A stretch of 40,626 nt of DNA from a virus, in IMG/VR virus record IMGVR_UViG_2885676553_000001, positions 1 through 40,626 of that record; one strand, 5' to 3'. A program made the translations under genes and the position numbers. Of the stretch, positions 441 to 40,626 are shown one piece after another. The notes beneath the pieces are model-generated. The model was not told the DNA's origin, did not search any database, and was given only the letters and a program-made list of their open reading frames with translations. Within the stretch, counting starts at the first letter, position 1. Every line of letters starts with the position of its first letter.

Positions 441-1409
441 CTACAAACATTCCTTCAATTTTTTGATTTTGTTAAACACGCTAGTGGACAAAACTAAATC
501 GAAGATGTCCTGTGAACCCACCGACTTCTGAAACTCAGTTACTGCTTCGGCATATTCCTTAATGAACCTAGAAATTTCCCGTTTAGGCATTCTGAGAGCT
601 CTTAAATAATAAACAAGGAGGGCTACATAGTCTGTTAGGGTTTCGAAAGTTATTTGACTGACACCCAGCTCGGATTCCAACTGGTGGGTAACTGTGTCTC
701 GGACCTTGTCCTTCTTGAACCGGCAATCAAATACAATATTATTATGCGCAATGGCATTCCTAAGGTCTTTCAGAAGAAAAACATGCCGCACAATAAAAGT
801 AGCATCCGTATCAATTGAGCCATCATAAACGCCAACGTTCTGGGACAGCTCAATACGTTTATTACCATTCATTACGTCCAAAAATGAGCCGAATTCCGCC
901 ATGCTGAAAAGCTCAAATATGGCCCAAATAGGAACACCTTCACCCTTATGCATGTAATGCTGAATCATCACTGAACTCCCATAGCGCTGAGCAATTAATT
1001 CATCAATTGTATTCTTAAGCCTGAGTCGATCGGTTATGCGCTCCTTATACTTCTTCTTGCTGGTCTCTTCCTTATACCGGTTAAGGCTGGTTTGGAAAAC
1101 CGCATCAATTGAAGGATCAATTCCATTGGACACAATAGCAATAGTACGGTTTTTGAGGGCGGTTTCTACCCGCATCATTCGAGGATAGAGAAGAGACTTA
1201 ACCGAGCTATCAAACTCATAGATTGCCTGGACTTGTCTAAACTCCGACAACTCCATCTTCTGGTTGTTGGAAGTCAATCGATAAGCTTTATATCCATGAT
1301 AATAGCCCATATCTAATAAGGCCCTCTTATCAGAGCTTCCGCCAACGTCTATGCTATGCTTATCGCGAATGTGGCGCATCAGAGCGTCAGTCGATTTTCC
1401 CTTTTTCAT
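441..1409 (-). CDS. Abi_2 family (AbiD/AbiF-like) HEPN abortive-infection protein
   Basis: 322-aa ORF with SD GGAGA before the ATG. The N-terminus (KSTDALMRHIRDKHSI...GYYHGYKAY) and the R-x4-H motif (LRNAIAHNN) match my memory of Pfam Abi_2. It has its own terminators on both sides. Confidence 0.75.
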   Translation of the reverse strand: MKKGKSTDALMRHIRDKHSIDVGGSSDKRALLDMGYYHGYKAYRLTSNNQKMELSEFRQVQAIYEFDSSVKSLLYPRMMRVETALKNRTIAIVSNGIDPSIDAVFQTSLNRYKEETSKKKYKERITDRLRLKNTIDELIAQRYGSSVMIQHYMHKGEGVPIWAIFELFSMAEFGSFLDVMNGNKRIELSQNVGVYDGSIDTDATFIVRHVFLLKDLRNAIAHNNIVFDCRFKKDKVRDTVTHQLESELGVSQITFETLTDYVALLVYYLRALRMPKREISRFIKEYAEAVTEFQKSVGSQDIFDLVLSTSVFNKIKKLKECL

Positions 1410-21572: not shown

Positions 21573-22574
21573 CTATGCACGGATTTCCAGCAGTGCTCTC
21601 ACTTTACTAGAAACCCTATTTGCGAGTTCGCTGTTTCCTTGATACCCATTATCATAAAACTCGGTATACTCAGACGAAATGTCCGCCGGAAGATGTTCAC
21701 CATAATCTTCTTTAAAGCTTTCTCTGCTGCAAATTGTAATAACTTTTTTGCCAATTGTGTGACAAATACCGAGCTCATAAAACACATTTGGATTTTTATA
21801 GCTCAAATCAGCTATAGCAAAAGCCGATGTGCAAATATCTTGCCAAATATTTTCTACAATATCATTTCCTCTATTAGGATCGAACATATCCTCCGATTTT
21901 ATGATACTGACGTCGTCTCCTACTTTATCAACAATCGCTGTCATTGCATTAAGTGGTTCTTCTTTAAAAGGCAATATATAAAAAATCTTATTCTTATTGA
22001 CAACCATATTACGTGCCTTAAATTTCGGATCAATAATCATCATGTTGTTTTTCCTTTCGAAATACTTGATTATATTGGTAGAATTATATTCTAGGTTGGC
22101 TTTTAAATCTTTTGCATCATTTACTAGTTCTTTGAATTTTGCAAGCTTTGATTCGGTCGGTGTTACAGTAATGCTTGTCAATTGCTTAGAATATTTAGAT
22201 ATGAGGTTTACTGGTATTTGAACAAAGAATTGAGGACTGTACCCTCGGCATAGGCCCATATGAATACCTAATAATTCGTGTGCTTGAGATATGCTTTGTG
22301 CTTGCATATTCAAAAACGATATTTCTTCAAACCCATGTATGGCTTTTTGACTGGTTAATCCTAAAACCACCTGATTTGTCGCTAATAGCCCCCAAACATT
22401 ATATGGTTGAACAAGCGATACTCTAGTAAGTCCCACTTGCATCAATGACGGGTCATTTTGAGCATAGTCAAGCAGACAGTCTAAATACGTGATTAAATTT
22501 TTAGCATCCAATCCATATATAAAATCATTTATTGTCGACACGTCTTTAATCCCGGATAAATTTGTTTTCATCAT
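21573..22574 (-). CDS. AT-rich accessory protein: unknown N-terminal domain plus C-terminal NDT/TIR-like Rossmannoid-looking domain (candidate defence effector)
   Basis: 333 aa from ATGATG at 22574, with SD GAGGTGA 5 nt upstream. Visibly AT-rich compared with its neighbours. C-terminal block: IFYILPF...AFAIADLSYKNPNVFYELGICHTIGKKVITI. The GTG-extended 374-aa track ORF runs through the leader hairpin and has no SD. Confidence 0.6.
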   Translation of the reverse strand: MMKTNLSGIKDVSTINDFIYGLDAKNLITYLDCLLDYAQNDPSLMQVGLTRVSLVQPYNVWGLLATNQVVLGLTSQKAIHGFEEISFLNMQAQSISQAHELLGIHMGLCRGYSPQFFVQIPVNLISKYSKQLTSITVTPTESKLAKFKELVNDAKDLKANLEYNSTNIIKYFERKNNMMIIDPKFKARNMVVNKNKIFYILPFKEEPLNAMTAIVDKVGDDVSIIKSEDMFDPNRGNDIVENIWQDICTSAFAIADLSYKNPNVFYELGICHTIGKKVITICSRESFKEDYGEHLPADISSEYTEFYDNGYQGNSELANRVSSKVRALLEIRA

Positions 22575-22578
22575 TTCT

Positions 22579-22633
22579 ATCACCTCAAAAAAATAGTACC
22601 CCAGCACGAACTGGAATACTACATTGAGGTGAT
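22579..22633 (-). promoter_or_regulatory. SD-sequestering hairpin / terminator-like element immediately 5' of the 333-aa gene
   Basis: Perfect 10-nt inverted repeat: atcacctcaa (22579-22588) and ttgaggtgat (22624-22633). The inner stem GUAGUA..CCAG-UUCGUG-CUGG..UACUAU is followed by U7. The 3' arm contains the SD GAGGUGA. Confidence 0.6.
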
Positions 22634-22811
22634 GTCTGTGCTTCATATCTAATGGTCTTGGAGTGACAGACTCCAAAGCGAGCGGGCGGAGTTGCACCTC
22701 CCTGTTTCAACATTGAGTAACCGGTATCAATGCCTTCCCTCATCTGTTGCTCGCATAATACGGTATTGGGTAATGTCAACCGCTTTGCCCTCTAGAAAGG
22801 CTCTAACCTAA

Positions 22812-28255: not shown

Positions 28256-29504
28256 AAGCCACCCCAAAGCGCATCTTGTCGGCTTCAAAGGTCATGCGAA
28301 TGTCTTGCAAGCTGCCTTCACGATTTTTCTGGACTGAGAAGATGACTGAACGAATCTTTTCATGCGTCTGGCTACGATCTTCGTTGTACAGGAAGCCCAC
28401 CGCATTGCTGTCTTGCTCAATCGAACCTGACTCCCTCAGGTCGCTGAGCATTGGCCGCGTGCTTTGCCGTTGCTCGATATTGCGTGACAACTGGCTGAGT
28501 AACAGAATCGGAATATTTAGCTCATTTGTCATCACCTTGAGCTCACGTGTGATCTGCTCAATCTGCAAGCGCCGATCAGGCTGATGTGGCACGGTGATCA
28601 AGCCCAGGTAGTCGACTACTGCCAGATACTTGTCTTTAGCAGCCGCTGACCTTTGCCGGATCACCTTTTCAATTTGCTGTAAGGTGGTGACCTTATCCCA
28701 AAGTCGCAAGTCATACCCGCTTAGGACCGTCCCTGCTGTGCGCACGTCGTCTTTTTGCTTGGCCTGCAACATATCGGGATCAAGCATCGAGCGACCAGCT
28801 ATGCCAAGATATGAGCTGATAAGACGGCTGTAATTTTGCTCGTTTGTCATCTCAAGGCTGAATAGGTCGATAGTCATTTCGGGTTGATGGCTCAGCGCCT
28901 GCAAAATCAGATTGATGGCAAACGCCGACTTGCCGACACCTGGTCGAGCACCGACTGTGATCAAGCGTCCTGGCATCAATCCACCGCCAAACACGGTGTC
29001 GATCGGAACCAGCGTCTTCACGCCGTCGTCGACGTGGTGGTCAAGTCGCTCATCCATCTCAGCGGCAAGGTCGGCCATTGTCACCTCGCGCACGTCGCCG
29101 TCATTGGCTGTGCTGTCCTGTGCGACCTGCATCAAGTCATCTAATCGCTCATCACTAGGGTCTTTGGCGTAGTCGATTGCCTTAGCCTTAGTACGCTCAC
29201 GGAAGTACTGACGCTTGAGTGCTCGTGTCCAACTATGCAAGCCACTAATGACTACATCCCCAGTGATGATCCAATCCCACACCTCACGCGGCAATAAGCT
29301 TGGGTGAGTCGCATCTAATCGGCTGCGCATCTCGATGTAATCCATATCGCCGATGGATTCTTGCCGATTGATAAAGTCCACCAGCGTGCCCAGGGACTTG
29401 CTACGCATCCATTCCGGATCTATCCATTCGGACTTGACCAGCTCTGGCTTTTTAGTGATGCAGTAGAGCACGTGCCAGCGTGGATCATCTGGATTGTGAT
29501 TCAT
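28248..29504 (-). CDS. DnaB-like replicative helicase
   Basis: 418 aa with Walker A GARPGVGKSAF, the FSLEM motif and a RecA-like C-terminal domain. Confidence 0.9.
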   Translation of the reverse strand: MNHNPDDPRWHVLYCITKKPELVKSEWIDPEWMRSKSLGTLVDFINRQESIGDMDYIEMRSRLDATHPSLLPREVWDWIITGDVVISGLHSWTRALKRQYFRERTKAKAIDYAKDPSDERLDDLMQVAQDSTANDGDVREVTMADLAAEMDERLDHHVDDGVKTLVPIDTVFGGGLMPGRLITVGARPGVGKSAFAINLILQALSHQPEMTIDLFSLEMTNEQNYSRLISSYLGIAGRSMLDPDMLQAKQKDDVRTAGTVLSGYDLRLWDKVTTLQQIEKVIRQRSAAAKDKYLAVVDYLGLITVPHQPDRRLQIEQITRELKVMTNELNIPILLLSQLSRNIEQRQSTRPMLSDLRESGSIEQDSNAVGFLYNEDRSQTHEKIRSVIFSVQKNREGSLQDIRMTFEADKMRFGVAYG

Positions 29505-30430
29505 TGTTCCCCGTCCTCCTTCGTCTGAAATTGTGTCAAAGCTGCGCGTATCTCAGCTTCTGACGCCGGCACTCCCTCGCTCTTGGCAGTTGCGACCACC
29601 TCATCAATCGAACGGCTTAGGCGATAAGCGTCAGTAGCCCACTCAGCCACAGAAAACGTGTGCGGGGTTTCAAGTACCGGTTGTTCAGGGACAAAGCCCC
29701 CACCCTCTTGATTCATCTTCGCAGTCAACTGATCGAATTTTTCTCGCAACTTTTTTGCGCTCAAGATGTTGGAACTCCAAAAGCTGTCATTCTGCGACCA
29801 TTGGATCAACATGCCAATATCCTTCCACGATCGGTTATCACGTTCGTGCATTAGCCGGAAAACATCAGCCCACTTCTGCAAGTCCTGTTGCTTCGCCTTG
29901 GGATTATTACGTTGGATCAGCTCCCACAATTTGGTTGCCGCGCGAAGCTCCTTAGACTGTTCGTCGAAAGTCCGTTTTGCGGACTTGTGACTAGAAGGTT
30001 TTACTTCTTTACTTCTTACATTCTTGTTAGGTGTCAATTGATTGTCAGTTGATTGTCGATTAACTGTCAGGTCGTTTGTCGTTTCATCAGTTGAAAGCTG
30101 GTATTTTGCCCAGTTAGCAATGGTTACAAGGCGTCCTTGCTTTGTCGATTCGTTTGTCAAAAAACCAAGTTTTTCAAACTTGTCGAGAGATGTACGAATT
30201 GCCCTTACGCTGACACCGTTCCCCGCTTTTAGCTTGATTGAATCCAATGACGTTCGGAACTGGCCTGGCTTGGCATGAAACTTTTCGCCTTTCCACACCC
30301 ACTTGCGTTCAGCGTGGTTTGCCATCAGCAGAAGGGTGATCATCACTGTTTTTTGAACCGGTGTGCAGTCCAGCCACAGCTCATCGTCAAGCAACGAACG
30401 ATAAAGCTTTATCCATCCCCCGTCTGCCAT
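29501..30430 (-). CDS. Replisome organizer / DnaD-like replication initiation protein
   Basis: 309 aa with a winged-helix-like N-terminus (WIKLYRSLLDDELW). Iterons lie inside the gene, and it is coupled to the helicase gene. Confidence 0.7.
   Translation of the reverse strand: MADGGWIKLYRSLLDDELWLDCTPVQKTVMITLLLMANHAERKWVWKGEKFHAKPGQFRTSLDSIKLKAGNGVSVRAIRTSLDKFEKLGFLTNESTKQGRLVTIANWAKYQLSTDETTNDLTVNRQSTDNQLTPNKNVRSKEVKPSSHKSAKRTFDEQSKELRAATKLWELIQRNNPKAKQQDLQKWADVFRLMHERDNRSWKDIGMLIQWSQNDSFWSSNILSAKKLREKFDQLTAKMNQEGGGFVPEQPVLETPHTFSVAEWATDAYRLSRSIDEVVATAKSEGVPASEAEIRAALTQFQTKEDGEQ
30031..30081. repeat. Putative replication origin iterons (TGTC(A/G) phased at 11 bp; consensus TTGATTGTC)
   Basis: Units ttgattgtca (30038), ttgattgtcg (30049), ttaactgtca (30060), tcgtttgtcg (30072), plus gtgtca at 30031. 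All lie inside the replisome-organizer gene. Confidence 0.55.
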
Positions 30431-34723: not shown

Positions 34724-35539
34724 TTAGGCTGTCTGTGGTTCGTTAGTTTGCTTTAGTGCCTTGGCGATCGCCTTGACGCCTTCATCGAAGTAAAGCCATT
34801 GCGGTACTTCTTTGTCGCTGTGCTGTGACTTGCTGTTAGCCCATCGGCCATACTTGTTCTGGCCCGGCTGTTCAGCCTTGATGCCAATTTGATTAGCAGT
34901 GCGGCCCACCTTGTTGGCTGTGGTTCCAAGCTTCTGGGCGACCGCCGTTGCGCTGTACTCCTTCTTGAGCAACACGGGAATGGTCATCTCACCGGTGATT
35001 GCCTCCGCAGCCTTGGCCAACAGTGCCTGCTTGGACGTTTCGGACTTGGTTTGCATGGCGATACGGTAAAGCAATGTTCCCTTGCGTGTCTGCGCATTCT
35101 CGCTCATGATCTCGAGCCGCTTGGCGGAATCGATACGCGGCTGTGTTGCCTTGGCCTCCGCCCGCATGGTGAAGTAACCATCAACCAACTGGTCATATAC
35201 TTCCCATGCCTTGTCGTCTTCGAGAATTTTCAGAAGCTTGGAATAGCCACGCTCGGAAAGCAGATAGATATTAGCTGAGTTCGAAGCGGACTGTTTGGTG
35301 AACCCGAAACTCAATGGCTCAAACCCATCGAGTTTTTTTAGGTCTAGAATATCGATGCCATCTTTGAAACGTTTACGGTTGTCATTGATACGTCGATTAA
35401 TCTCACCAAGTGGCTGTTCATGAATCAACGCGATGTCCTTAACCAACATCGCCTTTTTGTTCTTACCGAATCCGCCTTCGATACCGGTGAATTCGATATG
35501 GCCGATATGCTCACGACCGATTACTTTTAATTCGTTCAT
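34724..35539 (-). CDS. Antirepressor (ORF6N/KilAC-type)
   Basis: 271 aa. The N-terminus MNELKVIGREHIGHIEFTGIEGGFGKNKKAMLVKDIA is typical of ORF6N-domain antirepressors. Located directly after cro. Confidence 0.75.
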   Translation of the reverse strand: MNELKVIGREHIGHIEFTGIEGGFGKNKKAMLVKDIALIHEQPLGEINRRINDNRKRFKDGIDILDLKKLDGFEPLSFGFTKQSASNSANIYLLSERGYSKLLKILEDDKAWEVYDQLVDGYFTMRAEAKATQPRIDSAKRLEIMSENAQTRKGTLLYRIAMQTKSETSKQALLAKAAEAITGEMTIPVLLKKEYSATAVAQKLGTTANKVGRTANQIGIKAEQPGQNKYGRWANSKSQHSDKEVPQWLYFDEGVKAIAKALKQTNEPQTA

Positions 35540-35557
35540 TACTATGCCTCCTTGTGT

Positions 35558-35782
35558 TCATGCAACGTGAACCTTTTTCTTAAAAAAATAATCTGGTATG
35601 TCTCTAACGTCTGCGTGCAGCACCGACATTGCTTTTTCAATATCGCTATCGCGCCATGATGTTTTCCCATTCAGCTTTAGAGATATGCTGCGTTCTGACA
35701 GCCCCATGGCAATCGCAAAGTTATATTGTGTGCCAAACTGCTCTGTGATCTTTCCCAGAAGTTTAGAATAGTCATAGCTCAT
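35558..35782 (-). CDS. Cro-like HTH regulator
   Basis: 74 aa from MSYDYSKLLGKI with SD GGAGG. Divergent from cI. Confidence 0.75.
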   Translation of the reverse strand: MSYDYSKLLGKITEQFGTQYNFAIAMGLSERSISLKLNGKTSWRDSDIEKAMSVLHADVRDIPDYFFKKKVHVA

Positions 35783-35800
35783 TGTCCGTCCTCCTTTCCA

Positions 35801-35903
35801 GTTCATGACTCATGAACTTTATGAACTTATCATATCAGCGGCTAGTATGTCTGTCAACACAAATATTCATGTTTCGTGAACTTCTCTGTTGAACTTATGT
35901 TCA
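35801..35903. promoter_or_regulatory. Genetic-switch operator cluster (GTTCA/TGAAC half-sites)
   Basis: Perfect palindrome GTTCATGAcTCATGAAC (35801-35817). Also TTCATGTTTCGTGAAC (35866-35881) and TGAACttatGTTCA (35890-35903). Confidence 0.6.
35829..35857 (-). promoter_or_regulatory. Early lytic promoter (PR-like)
   Basis: Minus strand: TTGACA, 17-nt spacer, TATGAT. Confidence 0.65.
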
Positions 35904-35917
35904 TTCGCCGGTATACT
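35889..35917 (+). promoter_or_regulatory. Repressor maintenance promoter (PRM-like)
   Basis: TTGAAC, 17-nt spacer, TATACT, about 22 nt upstream of the cI ATG. The -35 lies in an operator half-site. Confidence 0.6.
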
Positions 35918-35939
35918 TCTAATTAAGGAGGTGCTTTAG

Positions 35940-36704
35940 ATGAAGTCAACAACAGCTCAACGGCTAAATCAGTTAATGACAGACCGCGGACTAAAACAGG
36001 TCGATATTTTGAACATGTCCAAGCCCTTCCAAAAGTCTCTTGGCATTAAAATGGGGAAAAGCACTCTTTCCCAATACGTTAATGGGGTTCAGTCACCCGA
36101 CCAAGATCGTATTTATTTACTAGCACATACTCTTAACGTTAGTGAGCCTTGGCTGATGGGGTTCGATGTCCCCCAAGAACGTCGATCGAGCAAAAAGACC
36201 CGCGAGGCTTCCACTGACATACTCCCCATATACAACAAGCTCCACCCCGCCCGCCAGCAGAACGTGTACACCTATGCGGAAGATCAGCTCAAGCAACAGC
36301 AGAACGAGAATGTTGTCCCGTTACCAGAACAGCGCGAGGTTGTTTGCGGGCGTGGTACAGCTGCCGGTGCTCCTATCGATGGCGCCACACAGGACGCTGA
36401 GGTGCGTAGGACGCGCGTCAATGTTAACGACATCCCAGCTAGTGCAGATGAAATCGTGACCGTTGAGGGGGACTCGATGGAGCCAGACTACCCGAAGTAT
36501 TCGCAGATATTTGTTCGATGGCAAGACACAATCGATGACGGCGATCTGGCTGTTGTCCGTGTGGCTGACGAAGGCGTCACATTTAAGCAGGTGTCCCGCG
36601 ACTACCAGCAAAAGAAAATTGTTCTACACTCACTGAATGACAAGTATCCTGACCGATACTTGGATCCCGAAGATGTCAGCATCATAGGCGTTGTCATCAA
36701 CTAA
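35940..36704 (+). CDS. CI-like repressor (XRE HTH plus S24 LexA-like peptidase)
   Basis: 254 aa with SD AAGGAGG. N-terminal HTH_3 and a C-terminal GDSMEP autocleavage-type motif. Confidence 0.9.
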   Translation: MKSTTAQRLNQLMTDRGLKQVDILNMSKPFQKSLGIKMGKSTLSQYVNGVQSPDQDRIYLLAHTLNVSEPWLMGFDVPQERRSSKKTREASTDILPIYNKLHPARQQNVYTYAEDQLKQQQNENVVPLPEQREVVCGRGTAAGAPIDGATQDAEVRRTRVNVNDIPASADEIVTVEGDSMEPDYPKYSQIFVRWQDTIDDGDLAVVRVADEGVTFKQVSRDYQQKKIVLHSLNDKYPDRYLDPEDVSIIGVVIN

Positions 36705-36794
36705 CCCGCAACAGTATCAGGACGCGGCGTTGGCCTACTTACCCGATACAATCTAGTCAACAACAAATAAATGGCTTAGAGGTGACAATCAACC

Positions 36795-37943
36795 GTGAAT
36801 ACAAATAAACAAATGGTACCGGAGCTTCGCTTCAAGGGGTTCACTGACGCTTGGGAAGAGCGTAAGTTAAAAGAACTTGGTGATATACAGACAGGTAATA
36901 CACCTCCAACAAGTAATTTGGATAATTATTCTACTGACGGCGTACTATGGGTTACTCCAACAGATATCAAAACGCTTGTTATATCTGATACTGCTAAAAA
37001 ACTATCTGAAGTAGGTGTGACAAAAGCAAGGATTGCTAAAGCAGGATCGATACTAGTTACTAGTATTGCAAGTATTGGGAAAAACACCTTAGTAACAATG
37101 GATGCTGGTTTTAATCAACAAATAAATTCACTCACTCCAACGCCTAAAAATGACTCCTATTTTCTGTTGACTCAATCAGAAAAGTGGTCTGAAAAGATGA
37201 AGAAAACTGCAGCATCAGCAACCATGCAGATAGTTAACAAAACAGATTTTTCAAATATCTCCACCTTTGTTCCTGTACACAAAGAGGAGCAACAAAAAAT
37301 CGGCTCATTTTTCAGGCAACTAGATGAAACTATCGCTCTTCATCAACGTAAGTTATATCTACTCAAGGAACAGAAAAAAGGCTACTTGCAGAAGTTGTTC
37401 CCCAAAAATGGAAGCAAGTTCCCGCAATTAAGATTTGCTGGATTTACTGACGCTTGGGAAAAGCGTCCTATCAAGAAAATCGCTAGCGTGAACGGTGGCA
37501 AGGACTACAAGCACCTTAACAAGGGTGACATTCCAGTCTATGGAACTGGCGGATACATGCTAAGTGTCGACCAGGCTTTATCTCAGGAAGACGGCATTGG
37601 CATTGGGCGAAAAGGTACAATTAACTCCCCCTACATTCTAAGAGCTCCATACTGGACCGTAGATACGTTGTTCTATGTGATACCTAAGGGGACACAAGAT
37701 ATAAATTTTCTGTATGCAATTTTTCAACGAGTTAACTGGAAGAAATACGACGAGTCTACCGGTGTACCATCATTGTCGAAACAAACAATCAATGCCGTGG
37801 AAGTTACAACTCCTACTCAAGCTGAACAAGAATTGATTGGAACGATGTTTAAGCAACTTGATAATCTCATCGCAGTCAACCAGCGTAAGGTTGAACTGTT
37901 AAAAAAATTGAAGCAAGCCTATCTCCAGAAAATGTTCGTGTAG
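36795..37943 (+). CDS. hsdS: Type I restriction-modification specificity subunit (orphan HsdS)
   Basis: 382 aa with two TRD halves, each opened by (E/Q)LRF(K/A)GFTDAWE(E/K)R. Two conserved helices are present (IGSFFRQLDETIALHQRKL..., IGTMFKQLDNLIAVNQRKV...). GTG start after GAGGTGA. Confidence 0.9.
   Translation: MNTNKQMVPELRFKGFTDAWEERKLKELGDIQTGNTPPTSNLDNYSTDGVLWVTPTDIKTLVISDTAKKLSEVGVTKARIAKAGSILVTSIASIGKNTLVTMDAGFNQQINSLTPTPKNDSYFLLTQSEKWSEKMKKTAASATMQIVNKTDFSNISTFVPVHKEEQQKIGSFFRQLDETIALHQRKLYLLKEQKKGYLQKLFPKNGSKFPQLRFAGFTDAWEKRPIKKIASVNGGKDYKHLNKGDIPVYGTGGYMLSVDQALSQEDGIGIGRKGTINSPYILRAPYWTVDTLFYVIPKGTQDINFLYAIFQRVNWKKYDESTGVPSLSKQTINAVEVTTPTQAEQELIGTMFKQLDNLIAVNQRKVELLKKLKQAYLQKMFV
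36839..36863 (+). repeat. hsdS intragenic direct repeat, copy 1
   Basis: Sequence gttcactgacgcttgggaagagcgt. The 15-nt core actgacgcttgggaa is identical to that at 37446-37460. Confidence 0.7.
37442..37466 (+). repeat. hsdS intragenic direct repeat, copy 2
   Basis: Sequence atttactgacgcttgggaaaagcgt, at the start of the second TRD half. Confidence 0.7.
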
Positions 37944-38075
37944 TACTCAACTGTGGTTCAACTGTTATCAAAAACCCATTAAGCAGCAGGCACGGGCAGG
38001 ACGTGCCGTGGGCTTACGTCCAAACTGGACGCAAAATAAAAAGCCCCTCAAAATGAGAGGCAGGAGGTGCTATGT

Positions 38076-38945
38076 ATGGAAATGTACCATGCATATCTGT
38101 GCTACGACTGTAAAAAAGAAGGCTATATCTCTCAACTTAAGGCATCAGTAACGGAAAAAAGTTACCTAAGCGCCACCTGCCAACGTGGGCATCATGTCGA
38201 TATTTTTACGAGCACGCCATTATTCGCACCATTATATGAACATGCCATGCAAGCTCATATTTCTCATAACTATTTTGAATCATTTTTAAGCGCATACTCT
38301 GCATTAGAAAACATTTTTAGGATTGCTAGTCAAGCTAATATCTGGATGTATTCAAATCGTGATATGACCGCGGTCGACAAAGCACTAAAGTTCGGGGCAC
38401 TACTGTCCTCAGAACGGTGTCAGGGAAATTTTTACACAGTTGCAGCGGAACGCTTTCCAAAACGCTTCGAGACAATTACTGAAGAGTTCAACCGGCTGGT
38501 TTCCGTACGTAATAGAGTGATGCATGGTAGTGTGATACCCGATGAGGGGCGTTCAATGCAGGCGCTAATGACTGTTTGGAAGGTCGGCGTGATCTGTCTT
38601 TATGGGTGGATGGAAAATGGAGGTAGCGTTATTCAATACTACCAAATGACCCGTAGCAATTATGATTTGAGTAAACGTTCAGAACATGTCTCGGCTCAGA
38701 AAGAAATTGAAGCAATGCCACATCCCGATCCAATGAAGATAGGAAATCTGTGTTACTATCTCTCACCCCTGAGCGAAGTCCGTGGACTGCTTGGATCAAT
38801 CAACTGGGATCATAAATTTGACGATGCAAACGGTCAGCCAGACTTTGAGGCAGTTATTGATAGTCAGCTGAAGGTTACGTTCGAACAATTAATACAGCAA
38901 ACTCCTCCACTCGACACCATCATAAAGCAATCAATCAAGCGTTAA
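38076..38945 (+). CDS. Zinc-ribbon-like plus HEPN-motif protein (candidate RNase effector)
   Basis: 289 aa from ATG at 38076, 8 nt after AGGAGG. N-terminal CYDC...CQRGHH. R-x4-H motif VRNRVMHG encoded at 38508-38525, within a helical region. Same strand as cI and hsdS. Confidence 0.55.
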   Translation: MEMYHAYLCYDCKKEGYISQLKASVTEKSYLSATCQRGHHVDIFTSTPLFAPLYEHAMQAHISHNYFESFLSAYSALENIFRIASQANIWMYSNRDMTAVDKALKFGALLSSERCQGNFYTVAAERFPKRFETITEEFNRLVSVRNRVMHGSVIPDEGRSMQALMTVWKVGVICLYGWMENGGSVIQYYQMTRSNYDLSKRSEHVSAQKEIEAMPHPDPMKIGNLCYYLSPLSEVRGLLGSINWDHKFDDANGQPDFEAVIDSQLKVTFEQLIQQTPPLDTIIKQSIKR

Positions 38946-39119
38946 AACATCACCCCAAAAAGTTAACAACTCCCGACTTCGATCGTAAATAAAATTTTCA
39001 TTTAGTGTTGGCGTTTTATCCGTAATGGATCCCGAGATAATGATTCTTGTGTTTCTCGGCAAAGTCTGCAAAAAGTCTGCTAGCTCGCCTGTGGTTCGTA
39101 ATTCATGATTGCAGTTCAT
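38931..39119 (-). CDS. Small hypothetical protein (62 aa), convergent with and overlapping the HEPN-motif gene
   Basis: SD AGGAGG 8 nt before the ATG. The 3' ends overlap by 15 bp. Confidence 0.5.
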   Translation of the reverse strand: MNCNHELRTTGELADFLQTLPRNTRIIISGSITDKTPTLNENFIYDRSRELLTFWGDVLTLD

Positions 39120-39236
39120 ATTGTTTACCTCCTAATATATATAAAGATAATAATCTGAGGTTTAATATCCTAAATTGCTGTGTAATATTATGAAACATCA
39201 CCTTTGAAAGCCAATAAATTAATTTTATTCATCACA

Positions 39237-39245
39237 ATTATACCA
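39237..39245 (-). promoter_or_regulatory. Extended -10 promoter element (TGGTATAAT) for the 62-aa ORF
   Basis: The minus strand reads TGGTATAAT, about 115 nt upstream of the ATG at 39119, in the AT-rich region divergent from int. Confidence 0.45.
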
Positions 39246-39359
39246 CGAAAAAGCGCCTGTCCCCATACCTTGACCGGTCAGGACAGACGCTAGGCAAGAA
39301 CTCGCTCGATGAGTGCGCTCTTTGTGTACTCTATTTTAACCTAAATGGAGGAAATTATC

Positions 39360-40496
39360 ATGGCATCTTACGAAAAACGTGGGACCGGTTGGCAGTTTCG
39401 TATCTCATGGCAGGACGAACAGGGCAAACGACATACCAAATCCAATGGTGGTTTCCGCACTAAGAAACTCGCCGAAAATGCTGCACACGATCTAGAGGTA
39501 AAACTCGCACACGGCTCGCATATTGACCGTGCGGATCTACCCCTAGTTGATTACTGGCATCAATGGTGCACCACTTATAAAATCGGTAAACGCGCTGTCG
39601 CCACAGAATACTTTTATCCAATCATTGAAACGACACTCAAAGATTACTTTGGTGATACGCCACTCGGCAAGATCACGCCCTTAAAATGGCAAGCCTTTCT
39701 AAACGACTATGGCGACACTCATGCGCGATCAACTAGCTCAAAGGTCAATGGATATATTCGTGCCATGGTACGCACCGCTATCAACGAACAAACTTTACAC
39801 ACCGACTTCACCTTTGATGCTGAAATTTCCGGTGAGCGTGGTGTTGATGAAGCCGACAAGTACCTTCAGCTTGATCAGTTTGCCGAGCTAGTTAACTTAG
39901 CACATGAAACGGCGGACTTTAATCACCTTGCAACTGTCGCCGTTTATGTCGGCGCAGAATCAGGAATGCGAGTGGCCGAAGTGCTTGGTCTTACGTGGGA
40001 TTGTGTGGATTTTGAAGCCAATACACTCACCATTAATAAATCATGGGACTATATTCATCATACGGGTTTCAAGCCAACGAAAAACGAATCCAGTAATCGA
40101 ACCGTCGAAGTTCTACCCGCAGTCACTGATTTACTCCGCCAAGTCAAAGTCCAACAAGCGGCTTGGATGCTGAAAACGGGCCAGCGTGACAAGCACAACT
40201 GCGTTTTTTATTCTAAGTATTCTCAGGTCCTTACTGGTGCGGCGTGTAATAAGGCACTTAAAAATATGGAGACCAAAATCGGCATCCCCAATGACGATCA
40301 AATCACCTTCCACGGCTTGCGTCATACCCATGTCTCTTATCTCCTATCCGAGGGTATCGATATTTACTATATCTCAAAGCGACTTGGCCACGCCGGCATC
40401 CAGATCACGATGAGCACTTACAGCCACTTATTGGACGCACAGAAATCTAAACAGGCATCAAAAGCAATGGTGGCGCTGGATAAGCTTGCCCGATAA
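39360..40496 (+). CDS. int: Tyrosine integrase
   Basis: 378 aa from MASYEKRGTGWQFRISW with SD GGAGGA. Catalytic signature present: MRVAEVLGL (R), HGLRHTH (HxxR), LGHAGIQITMSTYSH (H...Y). Confidence 0.9.
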   Translation: MASYEKRGTGWQFRISWQDEQGKRHTKSNGGFRTKKLAENAAHDLEVKLAHGSHIDRADLPLVDYWHQWCTTYKIGKRAVATEYFYPIIETTLKDYFGDTPLGKITPLKWQAFLNDYGDTHARSTSSKVNGYIRAMVRTAINEQTLHTDFTFDAEISGERGVDEADKYLQLDQFAELVNLAHETADFNHLATVAVYVGAESGMRVAEVLGLTWDCVDFEANTLTINKSWDYIHHTGFKPTKNESSNRTVEVLPAVTDLLRQVKVQQAAWMLKTGQRDKHNCVFYSKYSQVLTGAACNKALKNMETKIGIPNDDQITFHGLRHTHVSYLLSEGIDIYYISKRLGHAGIQITMSTYSHLLDAQKSKQASKAMVALDKLAR

Positions 40497-40497
40497 C

Positions 40498-40515
40498 GTG
40501 TACCAAACGTGTACC
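40498..40515 (+). promoter_or_regulatory. Putative integrase arm-type sites (GTGTACC N4 GTGTACC)
   Basis: Two identical heptamers 11 bp apart, between the int stop and the right repeat. Same orientation as the pair at 120-137. Confidence 0.5.
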
Positions 40516-40550
40516 GAGTGCGTAAAATCAACCAAAAACAAACTAAAACA

Positions 40551-40626
40551 AAAACACTGGAATGCCTTGATATCAGGCTTTCCAGTGTTCTAACGAAATC
40601 AATAAAGTTCTAAAAATGGAGGTGAG
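40551..40626 (+). repeat. Right copy of the 76-bp direct repeat
   Basis: Identical to 1-76 and starts 55 bp after the integrase stop. On the minus strand the hairpin is followed by a T-rich run (revcomp of 40530-40552), which looks like an intrinsic terminator. Confidence 0.9.

Follow-up and report, generated by a model that had tools for sequence, protein, structure and literature searches.

PrrC and RloC are anticodon nucleases that combine a HEPN domain with a nucleoside triphosphatase (NTPase) domain, and their genes are linked to type I restriction-modification (R-M) loci. A second HEPN design, Tha/Ith, is a tail-activated anti-phage system with its inhibitor, described from the Staphylococcus aureus prophages 80alpha, phi11 and phiNM2 (Rostol et al., Nat Microbiol 2024, PMC11087260). 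Minor tail proteins activate Tha, a non-specific HEPN ribonuclease (RNase), and the Ith protein inhibits it; the two genes form a noncontiguous operon in which transcription of the cI operon suppresses ith during lysogeny, while on induction ith takes over and autoimmunity is prevented (PMC11087260). Orphan genes for HsdS, the specificity subunit of type I R-M enzymes, are common on lactococcal mobile elements and many of them are active (PMC12418389; Schouler 1998 and O'Sullivan 2000, as cited there), and one HsdS in a prophage remnant was noted in L. lactis 3107 (PMC7693887). Here we describe a locus in which an orphan hsdS gene is followed by a gene for a zinc-ribbon and HEPN protein. It lies at positions 36795-38945 of the IMG/VR virus record IMGVR_UViG_2885676553_000001, the whole 40,626-nucleotide stretch of which is called the window below. 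On balance, it is probable that the region consists of two independent lysogenic-conversion cassettes in the cargo slot of a cI operon, one an orphan HsdS and the other a Tha/Ith-like unit made up of the HEPN gene and a small convergent gene.

The HEPN gene (38076-38945, plus strand) encodes 289 amino acids (aa) and has a GGAGG sequence 8 nt upstream of its ATG. The initial annotation of the locus overlooked an open reading frame (ORF) of 62 aa on the minus strand (38931-39119), which is convergent with the HEPN gene, overlaps its 3' end by 15 nt and has an AGGAGG Shine-Dalgarno sequence at 39128-39133. The genomic contexts of HEPN homologues were compared in 38 loci from about nine lineages, in which close relatives share 73-96% identity and distant ones 20-30%. 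A short convergent ORF of 52-85 aa abuts or overlaps the stop codon of the HEPN homologue in all 38. The small proteins are mutually homologous across lineages according to transitive BLASTP and have the motif D/E-h-h-x-x-L-x-x-h-P-x-D/N-T in common. The identities of the HEPN and the small protein also fall in parallel, from 96/100 through 85/94 and 73/81 to about 30/21%. The 62-aa ORF is thus an invariant partner of the HEPN gene.

The position of the small gene, on the opposite strand between lysogeny cargo and int, is typical of an excisionase, and its staphylococcal counterpart was long annotated as xis. Since HepS of the Salmonella prophage Gifsy-1 shows that single-gene HEPN prophage defences exist (PMC13043305), the 62-aa ORF might be the prophage excisionase and the HEPN protein an abortive-infection (Abi) protein of the HepS kind that acts alone. 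We regard this as very unlikely. The small ORF is 80-100% identical between loci whose integrases are only 21-41% identical, and one HEPN/small-ORF pair adjoins a lysin gene on a contig that is cut 284 nt upstream and on which the 5 kb downstream contain no called integrase. The 62-aa protein had no match in Pfam, whether to Xis, to HTH or to any other family. As it neither co-varies with the integrase nor matches an Xis or HTH family, the excisionase assignment was rejected, and the 62-aa protein is instead predicted, by analogy, to be an Ith-like inhibitor of the HEPN protein.

The signals around the pair point to an antisense arrangement. The 132-bp spacer between hsdS and the HEPN gene (37944-38075) had been described as holding two hairpins, neither followed by a U-run. 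Both hairpins are present, but the second one (38043-38061) has a U-run when it is read on the minus strand, GCCUCUCAUUUUGAGGGGC followed by UUUUUAUUUU. The consensus scan and folding delimit a predicted intrinsic terminator on this strand at 38033-38061, with the stem-loop at 38061-38043 and then UUUUUAUUUU. The hairpin has a folding energy of -12.2 kcal/mol on the minus strand versus -8.6 kcal/mol on the plus strand, where a G-U pair becomes a C-A mismatch and the stability is lower for that reason. The terminator sits 2 nt before the Shine-Dalgarno sequence of the HEPN gene. An A-run followed by a hairpin occurs at this position in five of five distinct contexts, and it is there that the homology between contexts begins; the hairpin of loci L006 and L007 is larger and has a different stem. 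Transcription of the small ORF would end at 38033-38061, and since the terminator lies 5' of the HEPN gene, the small-ORF transcript is predicted to be antisense to the entire HEPN gene.

Upstream of the small ORF, the alignment revealed an extended -10 element, TGGTATAAT (39237-39245, minus strand), that is kept in four contexts and is a candidate promoter of the small ORF. The consensus scan gave a second promoter-like site on the same strand at 39214-39187. Directly upstream of the candidate promoter there is a very stable hairpin of -24.8 kcal/mol with a U-run (39248-39291, minus strand). It is kept in four contexts, and the sequence changes seen in L004 and L006 are compensatory. It may act as an insulator against read-in from the int side.

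Joint divergence and strict linkage of the HEPN gene and the small ORF would also be expected if they were no more than a type II toxin-antitoxin pair whose role is to stabilise the prophage, with neither phage sensing nor a life-cycle switch, and HEPN domains are common as toxins of such systems (PMC3710099, PMC7641770). However, type II pairs are normally co-directional and co-translated, whereas these genes are convergent and the terminator implies a full-length antisense transcript. In the majority of the contexts that were inspected, the pair is moreover found in prophage moron slots beside defence cargo such as Abi_2, SLATT with TIR, and R-M parts. We therefore consider a plain toxin-antitoxin function unlikely. 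A HEPN-MNT toxin-antitoxin system was rejected separately, as the neighbours are hsdS, the 62-aa ORF and int, with no nucleotidyltransferase gene among them.

The pair is embedded in a typical lysogeny module. The window comes from a prophage of Lacticaseibacillus baoqingensis (assembly GCA_042680485.1, contig JBHTON010000014.1), the only species from which the exact HsdS and the exact 289-aa protein are on record. Its right-hand end runs on the plus strand throughout, in the order cI, hsdS, the 289-aa ORF and int, and host genes follow the integrase on the source contig. The cI-like repressor (35940-36704, 254 aa) carries HTH_3 and Peptidase_S24 domains according to Pfam and is 76% identical to the repressor of the sister prophage in L. 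nasuensis. Divergent from cI there is a DUF739 cro-like gene together with an ORF6N antirepressor gene. The module ends with a tyrosine integrase of 383 aa (39345-40496, plus strand; Pfam). A promoter-like site, TTGAAC-17-TATACT (35889-35917, plus strand), was found 5' of cI by the consensus scan only and is a candidate promoter of a lysogeny operon cI-hsdS-HEPN-(int). The 90-bp gap between cI and hsdS (36705-36794) contains neither a promoter-like nor a terminator-like site on the plus strand in the same scan, in line with the initial annotation, which had seen no canonical promoter there. No plus-strand terminator was found by the scan between cI and the small ORF, or further on as far as int, and an Rfam scan of 35500-40626 gave no known RNA family. 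As no plus-strand terminator follows cI, the earlier suggestion that hsdS and the HEPN gene are expressed in the lysogen through the cI operon is plausible.

The corresponding part of 80alpha has the order int, ith (66 aa), tha (301 aa, with the motif R265NSIMH270), two small genes, cI, a divergent DUF739 gene and an antirepressor gene; ith is convergent with tha, overlaps it and was annotated as xis for years. Given the same gene order and strand logic, the extended -10 element and the minus-strand terminator, we propose a functional analogy with Tha/Ith for the HEPN gene and the small ORF. Published work on Tha/Ith was confined to S. aureus in the literature searched, and no lactobacillus counterpart was found; nor did the search return anything specific on a prophage hsdS-HEPN pair or on RiboL-PSP HEPN defence.

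The identification of the 289-aa protein as a HEPN protein draws on its family and on structure prediction. A profile search of 1.84 billion representative sequences returned only 46 proteins at E values up to 1e-3, so the family is small. In the 47-sequence alignment C35, H39, E78, R145 and H150 are invariant, and C9, C12, E68, S112, G117, N146 and P155 are conserved in at least 90% of the members. These residues form a CxxC...CxxxH metal site followed by the canonical RNxxxH motif of HEPN domains. The zinc ribbon covers approximately residues 1-43 (38076-38204; C9, C12, C35 and H39) and the HEPN bundle approximately residues 44-210 (38205-38705), with the RNRVMH motif at 38508-38525; the C-terminal 80 residues are variable. 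The Shine-Dalgarno sequence, the CxxC...CxxxHH pattern and the R-x4-H motif noted initially are all present, and the motif residues are those conserved throughout the alignment.

Ten of the 47 relatives have sub-threshold matches to the Pfam family HEPN_RiboL-PSP (PF18735), and one relative each to HEPN_Cthe2314, DUF4145 and HEPN_Apea. The UniRef label of the 289-aa protein is 'Apea-like HEPN domain-containing protein'. The protein itself had no match at all in NCBIfam or PADLOC and none to the HEPN families of Pfam at E 0.1, its only PHROGs match was phrog_19381, of unknown function, and a sequence search of the PDB with the family profile yielded noise only. A sub-threshold Pfam match to DUF7630 (E 0.094) was judged meaningless. 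The full-length AlphaFold2 model had a mean local confidence (pLDDT) of 81.5 and a global template-modelling score (pTM) of 0.80. It consists of a helical core preceded by four strands at the N-terminus, with residues 207-240 disordered and a small helical part at the C-terminus. Residues 44-210 modelled alone reached a pLDDT of 92.5. In the comparison of this domain model with the PDB by Foldseek, the best match was 2q00_B (probability 1.00, target-normalised TM-score 0.73, E 0.26), and 2q00 is listed as a HEPN (PaREP1) structure by Anantharaman et al. (PMC3710099). The full-length model gave nothing below E 0.1 against the PDB, where 2q00 and AbiV (9bj7) were the only meaningful matches, and no match among the viral structures of BFVD. 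The alignment and the model together support the prediction of a zinc-ribbon and HEPN protein, as the initial annotation had supposed from the motif, and the protein is probably an RNase.

The DNA comparisons place the borders of the two cassettes inside the spacer. The second half of hsdS with the following 35 bp (37332-37978) is 96% identical to prophages of the BH1 type, and this homology ends at 37978. A 53-bp piece (37973-38025), which includes the other hairpin at 37989-38008, stands in L. nasuensis directly after cI and before an M gene. Homology of the HEPN module with L. nasuensis, L010, L006 and L007 starts at 38025-38062, at the A-run and hairpin described above, and the break in DNA homology on this side was mapped to 38025-38033. 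Recombination breakpoints therefore fall inside the 132-bp spacer, which holds the cassette joints according to blastn against related loci, alignment and folding. On the left side, a conserved junction (36540-36866, plus strand) runs from the 3' part of cI across the 90-bp gap into the first 72 nt of hsdS. Its DNA is 93% identical to that of phage BH1 and of prophages in L. rhamnosus, in which the cI part is reduced to a 72-aa S24 remnant. This S24-peptidase remnant was observed at 4947-5165 of L001 and at 7692-7910 of L030-L034, between the repressor proper to those prophages and hsdS. As the remnant, gap and start of hsdS are 93% identical to the window, the hsdS cassette may have been imported together with a foreign cI tail.

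The two genes also occur without each other. Homologues of the HEPN gene are mostly found without hsdS nearby across the approximately nine lineages (L006-L008, L035-L043, L002/L003 and L015-L029). In L. nasuensis the order is cI, a 648-aa N6_Mtase, a 340-aa S subunit, a 66-aa ORF and the HEPN gene. In a metagenome contig it is SLATT, ThsB-TIR, PGDYG and the HEPN gene, and in another contig four unknown genes precede it. Among distant relatives, one prophage has SHOCT and TerB_N upstream of the HEPN homologue, and another has a cI-S24 repressor and a zinc-ribbon ORF. The phages JNU_P10, R24.2 and R26.26 and 15 IMG/VR contigs have a HEPN homologue in their lysogeny module, and there is neither an S nor an M gene within 8 kb of it. 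A tblastn search of phages with the HEPN protein found only phages of Lacticaseibacillus, and a profile search of genome contigs with a 9-member alignment of the family returned only L. nasuensis. In the opposite direction, the HsdS relatives P0141 and P0064 (64-66% identity) have the best full-length coverage among those whose contexts were looked up, and P0141 is recorded in 461 blocks of the collection. In their L. rhamnosus prophages the order is cI, the 72-aa S24 remnant, hsdS, a 73-aa ORF, an 87-aa ORF and int, which is also the order of gp26-gp28 of phage BH1; these prophages have no HEPN gene and no homologue of the small ORF.

Two of these contexts deserve description in their own right. 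L. nasuensis JCM 17158 (L004/L013) carries a sister prophage whose cI is 76%, HEPN gene 96% and small ORF 100% identical to those of the window. At 2661-5607 of L004 the 648-aa N6_Mtase, with weak matches to MmeI_Mtase and Eco57I, overlaps the 340-aa S subunit, and no R gene is present, so that M and S may form a self-sufficient methyltransferase. In L006 (4579-5859) and L008 the slot upstream of the HEPN module is filled by SLATT_1/DUF4231, a ThsB-type TIR gene and a PGDYG ORF; in view of this varied cargo, the position is a defence-cargo hot spot.

The spacer breakpoints and the dissociation in both directions indicate that hsdS and the HEPN gene are separate cassettes. The initial annotation had treated them as a pair and had named a lack of co-conservation in homologous prophages as an argument against its idea; in the survey of related prophages the pair was not co-conserved, and as an obligate system it does not appear to hold. 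Now and then, though, the two cassettes travel together, since the window and L048 share an uninterrupted block of 1816 bp, at 89% identity, that begins in the central region of hsdS and includes the small ORF. A functional coupling of the two would have the HEPN protein act as a PrrC-like guard or backup of a re-programmed type I enzyme, or make the pair a reader-plus-effector system. Besides the shared block, the two genes are direct neighbours on the same strand, and no plus-strand terminator separates them. In the window, in L010 (order Abi_2, distant from that of the window, then hsdS and the HEPN gene) and in L048/L049 (order HTH and M78, then hsdS and the HEPN gene, found in L. suibinensis and L048), hsdS immediately precedes the HEPN gene. 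The left neighbours thus are of three kinds, cI-S24, Abi_2, and HTH with M78. An M and S pair fills the same slot in L. nasuensis, and HEPN genes are generally linked to R-M loci (PMC3710099). However, the S subunit of L. nasuensis has no homology to the HsdS of the window by tblastn at 1e-4 or to the HsdS hidden Markov model (HMM), the HEPN protein is without an NTPase domain of the PrrC/RloC type, and its gene has a dedicated partner of its own. The hsdS-bearing contexts are, furthermore, closely related Lacticaseibacillus prophages whose post-cI slot often holds hsdS anyway. With the breakpoints and the two-way dissociation added, coupling seems quite improbable to us. The PrrC-like logic proposed earlier in particular finds no counterpart in the protein: the PrrC/RloC reading was rejected because the N-terminus is a 43-residue zinc ribbon and not an NTPase domain, and there is no hsdM or hsdR nearby within which the gene could be embedded.

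A combined scheme is also conceivable, in which HsdS would re-programme a host type I enzyme, the HEPN RNase would guard it and fire when a phage disables restriction, and the antisense gene would be the off-switch on induction. It would explain why hsdS or M and S stand directly upstream in four of the six contexts of the closest clade, but we give it the least credence of all the readings considered. The reading with two independent cassettes is kept, and the hsdS cassette is described below.

The HsdS protein (36795-37943, plus strand, 382 aa, GTG start) matched Pfam Methylase_S (PF01420) in two stretches (E 2.8e-35) and PADLOC Specificity_I over residues 5-382 (2e-88). Its approximate layout is an N-terminal conserved region (36795-36869), a first target recognition domain (TRD-A, 36870-37274), a central conserved region (37275-37466), a second one (TRD-B, 37467-37811) and a distal conserved region (37812-37940). 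The subunit is intact: alignment with HsdS proteins of complete systems showed both TRDs, the three conserved regions, which in HsdS are helical and make the contacts with HsdM, and the invariant blocks. Both databases and the position 90 bp downstream of cI, on the same strand, agree with the full-length, two-TRD HsdS described initially. The Pfam scan covered all window ORFs of at least 146 aa other than obvious antisense shadows and identified phage structural, replication and lysis proteins, an HNH and an Abi_2, and the HsdM HMM had no match among all window ORFs of at least 40 aa. These negative results bear out the earlier observation that no methylase or restriction subunit is encoded in the 40.6 kb. 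Neither hsdM nor hsdR was found within 10 kb on either side of hsdS on the source contig. The HsdS of the window lacks adjacent hsdM and hsdR and hence is an orphan, and it presumably needs HsdM and HsdR from the host.

The hsdS gene is a TRD mosaic, and its parts belong to a mobile pool of hsdS alleles that lactic acid bacteria carry on plasmids, chromosomes and prophages. Together, TRD-A and the central region show 87-94% identity to the second TRD of chromosomally encoded HsdS proteins of L. lactis and Leuconostoc mesenteroides; the gene for the L. lactis protein is part of a complete hsdR-hsdM-hsdS operon. At the DNA level, the same part is 94.6% identical to hsdS of a Levilactobacillus brevis plasmid and about 88% identical to hsdS of lactococcal plasmids of 4.7-5.8 kb; the central region by itself accounts for most of the 136 matching plasmid records. 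The G + C content of the TRD-A and central part is 36-38% versus 51-57% in cI. The alleles of L. rhamnosus prophages have the same TRD-B and distal conserved region, and almost no differences separate this distal region from that of an HsdS of Lacticaseibacillus mingshuiensis, whose gene adjoins hsdM, with hsdR about 4 kb further. From TRDs and conserved regions that match complete systems, it follows that this HsdS is a member of a type I family of which both Lactococcus and Lacticaseibacillus have complete systems. The earlier comparison with lactococcal orphan subunits was therefore apt, as the protein is of the same family as lactococcal plasmid and chromosomal HsdS.

Two observations concern these relatives themselves. 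The type I system of L. mingshuiensis (L046, 4663-17590) lies beside an integrase and is interrupted by a Fic gene, fragments of HsdS, an AbiH-like fragment and a faint GIY-YIG ORF, so that the region resembles an integrative defence island with remnants of an hsdS shufflon. The HsdS P0058, from a Leuconostoc mesenteroides chromosome, has the same two TRD types in swapped order, the TRD-B-like one first (62% identical) and TRD-A second (87% identical), and it may recognise a related bipartite site on the opposite strand.

Whether such a subunit acts depends on its partners, and the orphan HsdS could be silent cargo, either because no compatible HsdM and HsdR are at hand or because it is mere TRD raw material for recombination. 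The prophage itself has no M or R, and a large fraction of lactococcal orphan S genes is reported to be silent (PMC12418389). When L. lactis HsdM was used as the query, the best 120 homologues included L. mingshuiensis and no entry from L. baoqingensis. However, the frame is intact with the three conserved regions in place, a Lacticaseibacillus HsdS whose gene stands beside hsdM, with hsdR nearby, has an almost identical distal region, and a very large number of L. rhamnosus genomes maintain this type of gene. We consider silence possible but somewhat doubtful.

Several of the results weigh against two independent cassettes of which one is Tha/Ith-like and the other active. The HEPN protein and Tha-1 gave an hhalign probability of 3.6%, in the motif region only, and a BLASTP E value of 0.40; the probability for the 62-aa protein and Ith-1 was 0.1%, and Ith-1 belongs to Pfam DUF7938 (2.8e-48), whereas the 62-aa protein does not. 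As neither protein has detectable sequence homology, membership of the Tha/Ith family was rejected. The placement of the HEPN domain also differs, being central behind the N-terminal CxxC...CxxxH zinc ribbon in the window and C-terminal in Tha-1. The 289-aa protein itself passes no Pfam HEPN threshold, and its Foldseek match to 2q00_B has a weak E value despite the probability and TM-score. With regard to independence, there is the contiguous 1816-bp block shared with L048, and hsdS stands directly upstream of the HEPN gene in three of the six closest-clade contexts, which is more frequent than a random cargo slot would suggest; in a fourth of the six an unrelated M and S pair is upstream. For the activity of HsdS, the same direction is indicated by the want of an L. 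baoqingensis HsdM among the best 120 homologues of L. lactis HsdM and by the approximately 43% of lactococcal orphan S genes that are reported silent (PMC12418389).

The two-cassette reading, which we prefer, suggests the following course of events. The hsdS of the first cassette would have been built by TRD shuffling from the hsdS pool circulating in lactic acid bacteria and, if the host has compatible HsdM and HsdR, the lysogen would gain one extra methylation and restriction specificity. In the second cassette, the HEPN gene would be read from the cI operon during lysogeny, and the same transcription would suppress the antisense small gene. The HEPN protein would then serve as an abortive-infection RNase against superinfecting phage. 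On induction, cI transcription would stop and the small gene would be expressed; its transcript would run antisense across the HEPN gene and its protein would silence the HEPN protein. Such silencing would keep the prophage from killing its own lytic cycle, a logic shown experimentally for Tha/Ith in 80alpha.

Outside the lysogeny module, the window carries an Abi_2 (AbiD/AbiF-like) protein of 322 aa at 441-1409 (minus strand; Pfam E 5e-28). Its gene lies just past the lysin gene (1590-2318), at the opposite end of the prophage, and is a third candidate defence cargo within the same prophage. Two further ORFs, of 374 aa (21573-22697, minus strand) and 309 aa (29501-30430, minus strand), matched no Pfam family at E 1e-3; the latter adjoins a DnaB-like helicase gene.

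If the proposed reading is true, the Tha/Ith design, a defence RNase in the repressor operon with a small overlapping antisense off-switch, is not a staphylococcal peculiarity, and an unrelated HEPN family has reached the same solution in prophages of Lacticaseibacillus and at least one other host. Self-silenced prophage defences could be searched for by a simple genomic signature, in which a HEPN gene is met by a short convergent ORF and has a reverse terminator at its 5' end, and caution would be due in annotating such small ORFs as excisionases. The mobile orphan-S strategy of lactococcal plasmids would extend to temperate phages, with the gene wired into the repressor operon, and this extension would be relevant to phage resistance and transformability of industrial and probiotic Lacticaseibacillus strains. 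No new principle is involved, and the value of the proposal lies in its breadth and testability.

Compared with described systems, the orphan hsdS is of a known and ordinary kind, found in a place where such genes are less well documented. Like other orphan HsdS of lactic acid bacteria, it is full-length, has two TRDs and has no adjacent M or R. Its conserved regions are those of lactococcal HsdS, and its TRDs are common to alleles of Lactococcus, Leuconostoc, Levilactobacillus and L. rhamnosus. It occupies the same post-cI slot as gp26 of phage BH1 and its counterparts in BH1-like prophages. Unlike the orphan HsdS of small plasmids, it is prophage-borne and lies inside the repressor operon, and its activity is a prediction from sequence.

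The HEPN protein resembles PrrC and RloC in being a predicted HEPN nuclease encoded next to a type I R-M component, but it differs from them in that it has no N-terminal NTPase, is not embedded among hsdM, hsdS and hsdR, has a facultative linkage to hsdS and has a small partner of its own. With regard to the families HEPN_RiboL-PSP, HEPN_Apea and DUF4145, relatives match below the gathering threshold and the protein of the window does not match. Like HepS and the lactococcal AbiV and AbiD/F, it is predicted to be a HEPN effector of abortive infection that is carried by a prophage or plasmid; neither its sequence nor its fold matches theirs significantly, AbiV (9bj7) being among the weak fold matches. 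In Gifsy-1, self-targeting by HepS is avoided by a tail-tip variant and not by an inhibitor gene (PMC13043305).

The closest likeness is to Tha/Ith. In both, a temperate siphovirus of Firmicutes encodes a protein of about 300 aa with the HEPN motif RNxxxH, and the gene stands in the cI operon between cI, with variable cargo, and int. Both have a convergent gene of 60-70 aa that overlaps the 3' end of the HEPN gene, apparently has its own promoter and does not co-vary with the integrase, and in both DUF739 and antirepressor genes lie on the far side of cI. The 3' overlap is 15 nt in the window versus 64 nt in Tha/Ith, and the minus-strand terminator at the 5' end of the HEPN gene is a feature of the window, unlike Tha/Ith. 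By this analogy, the best model is that the HEPN gene and the 62-aa ORF would be a functional analogue of Tha/Ith and a non-homologous variant of that design.

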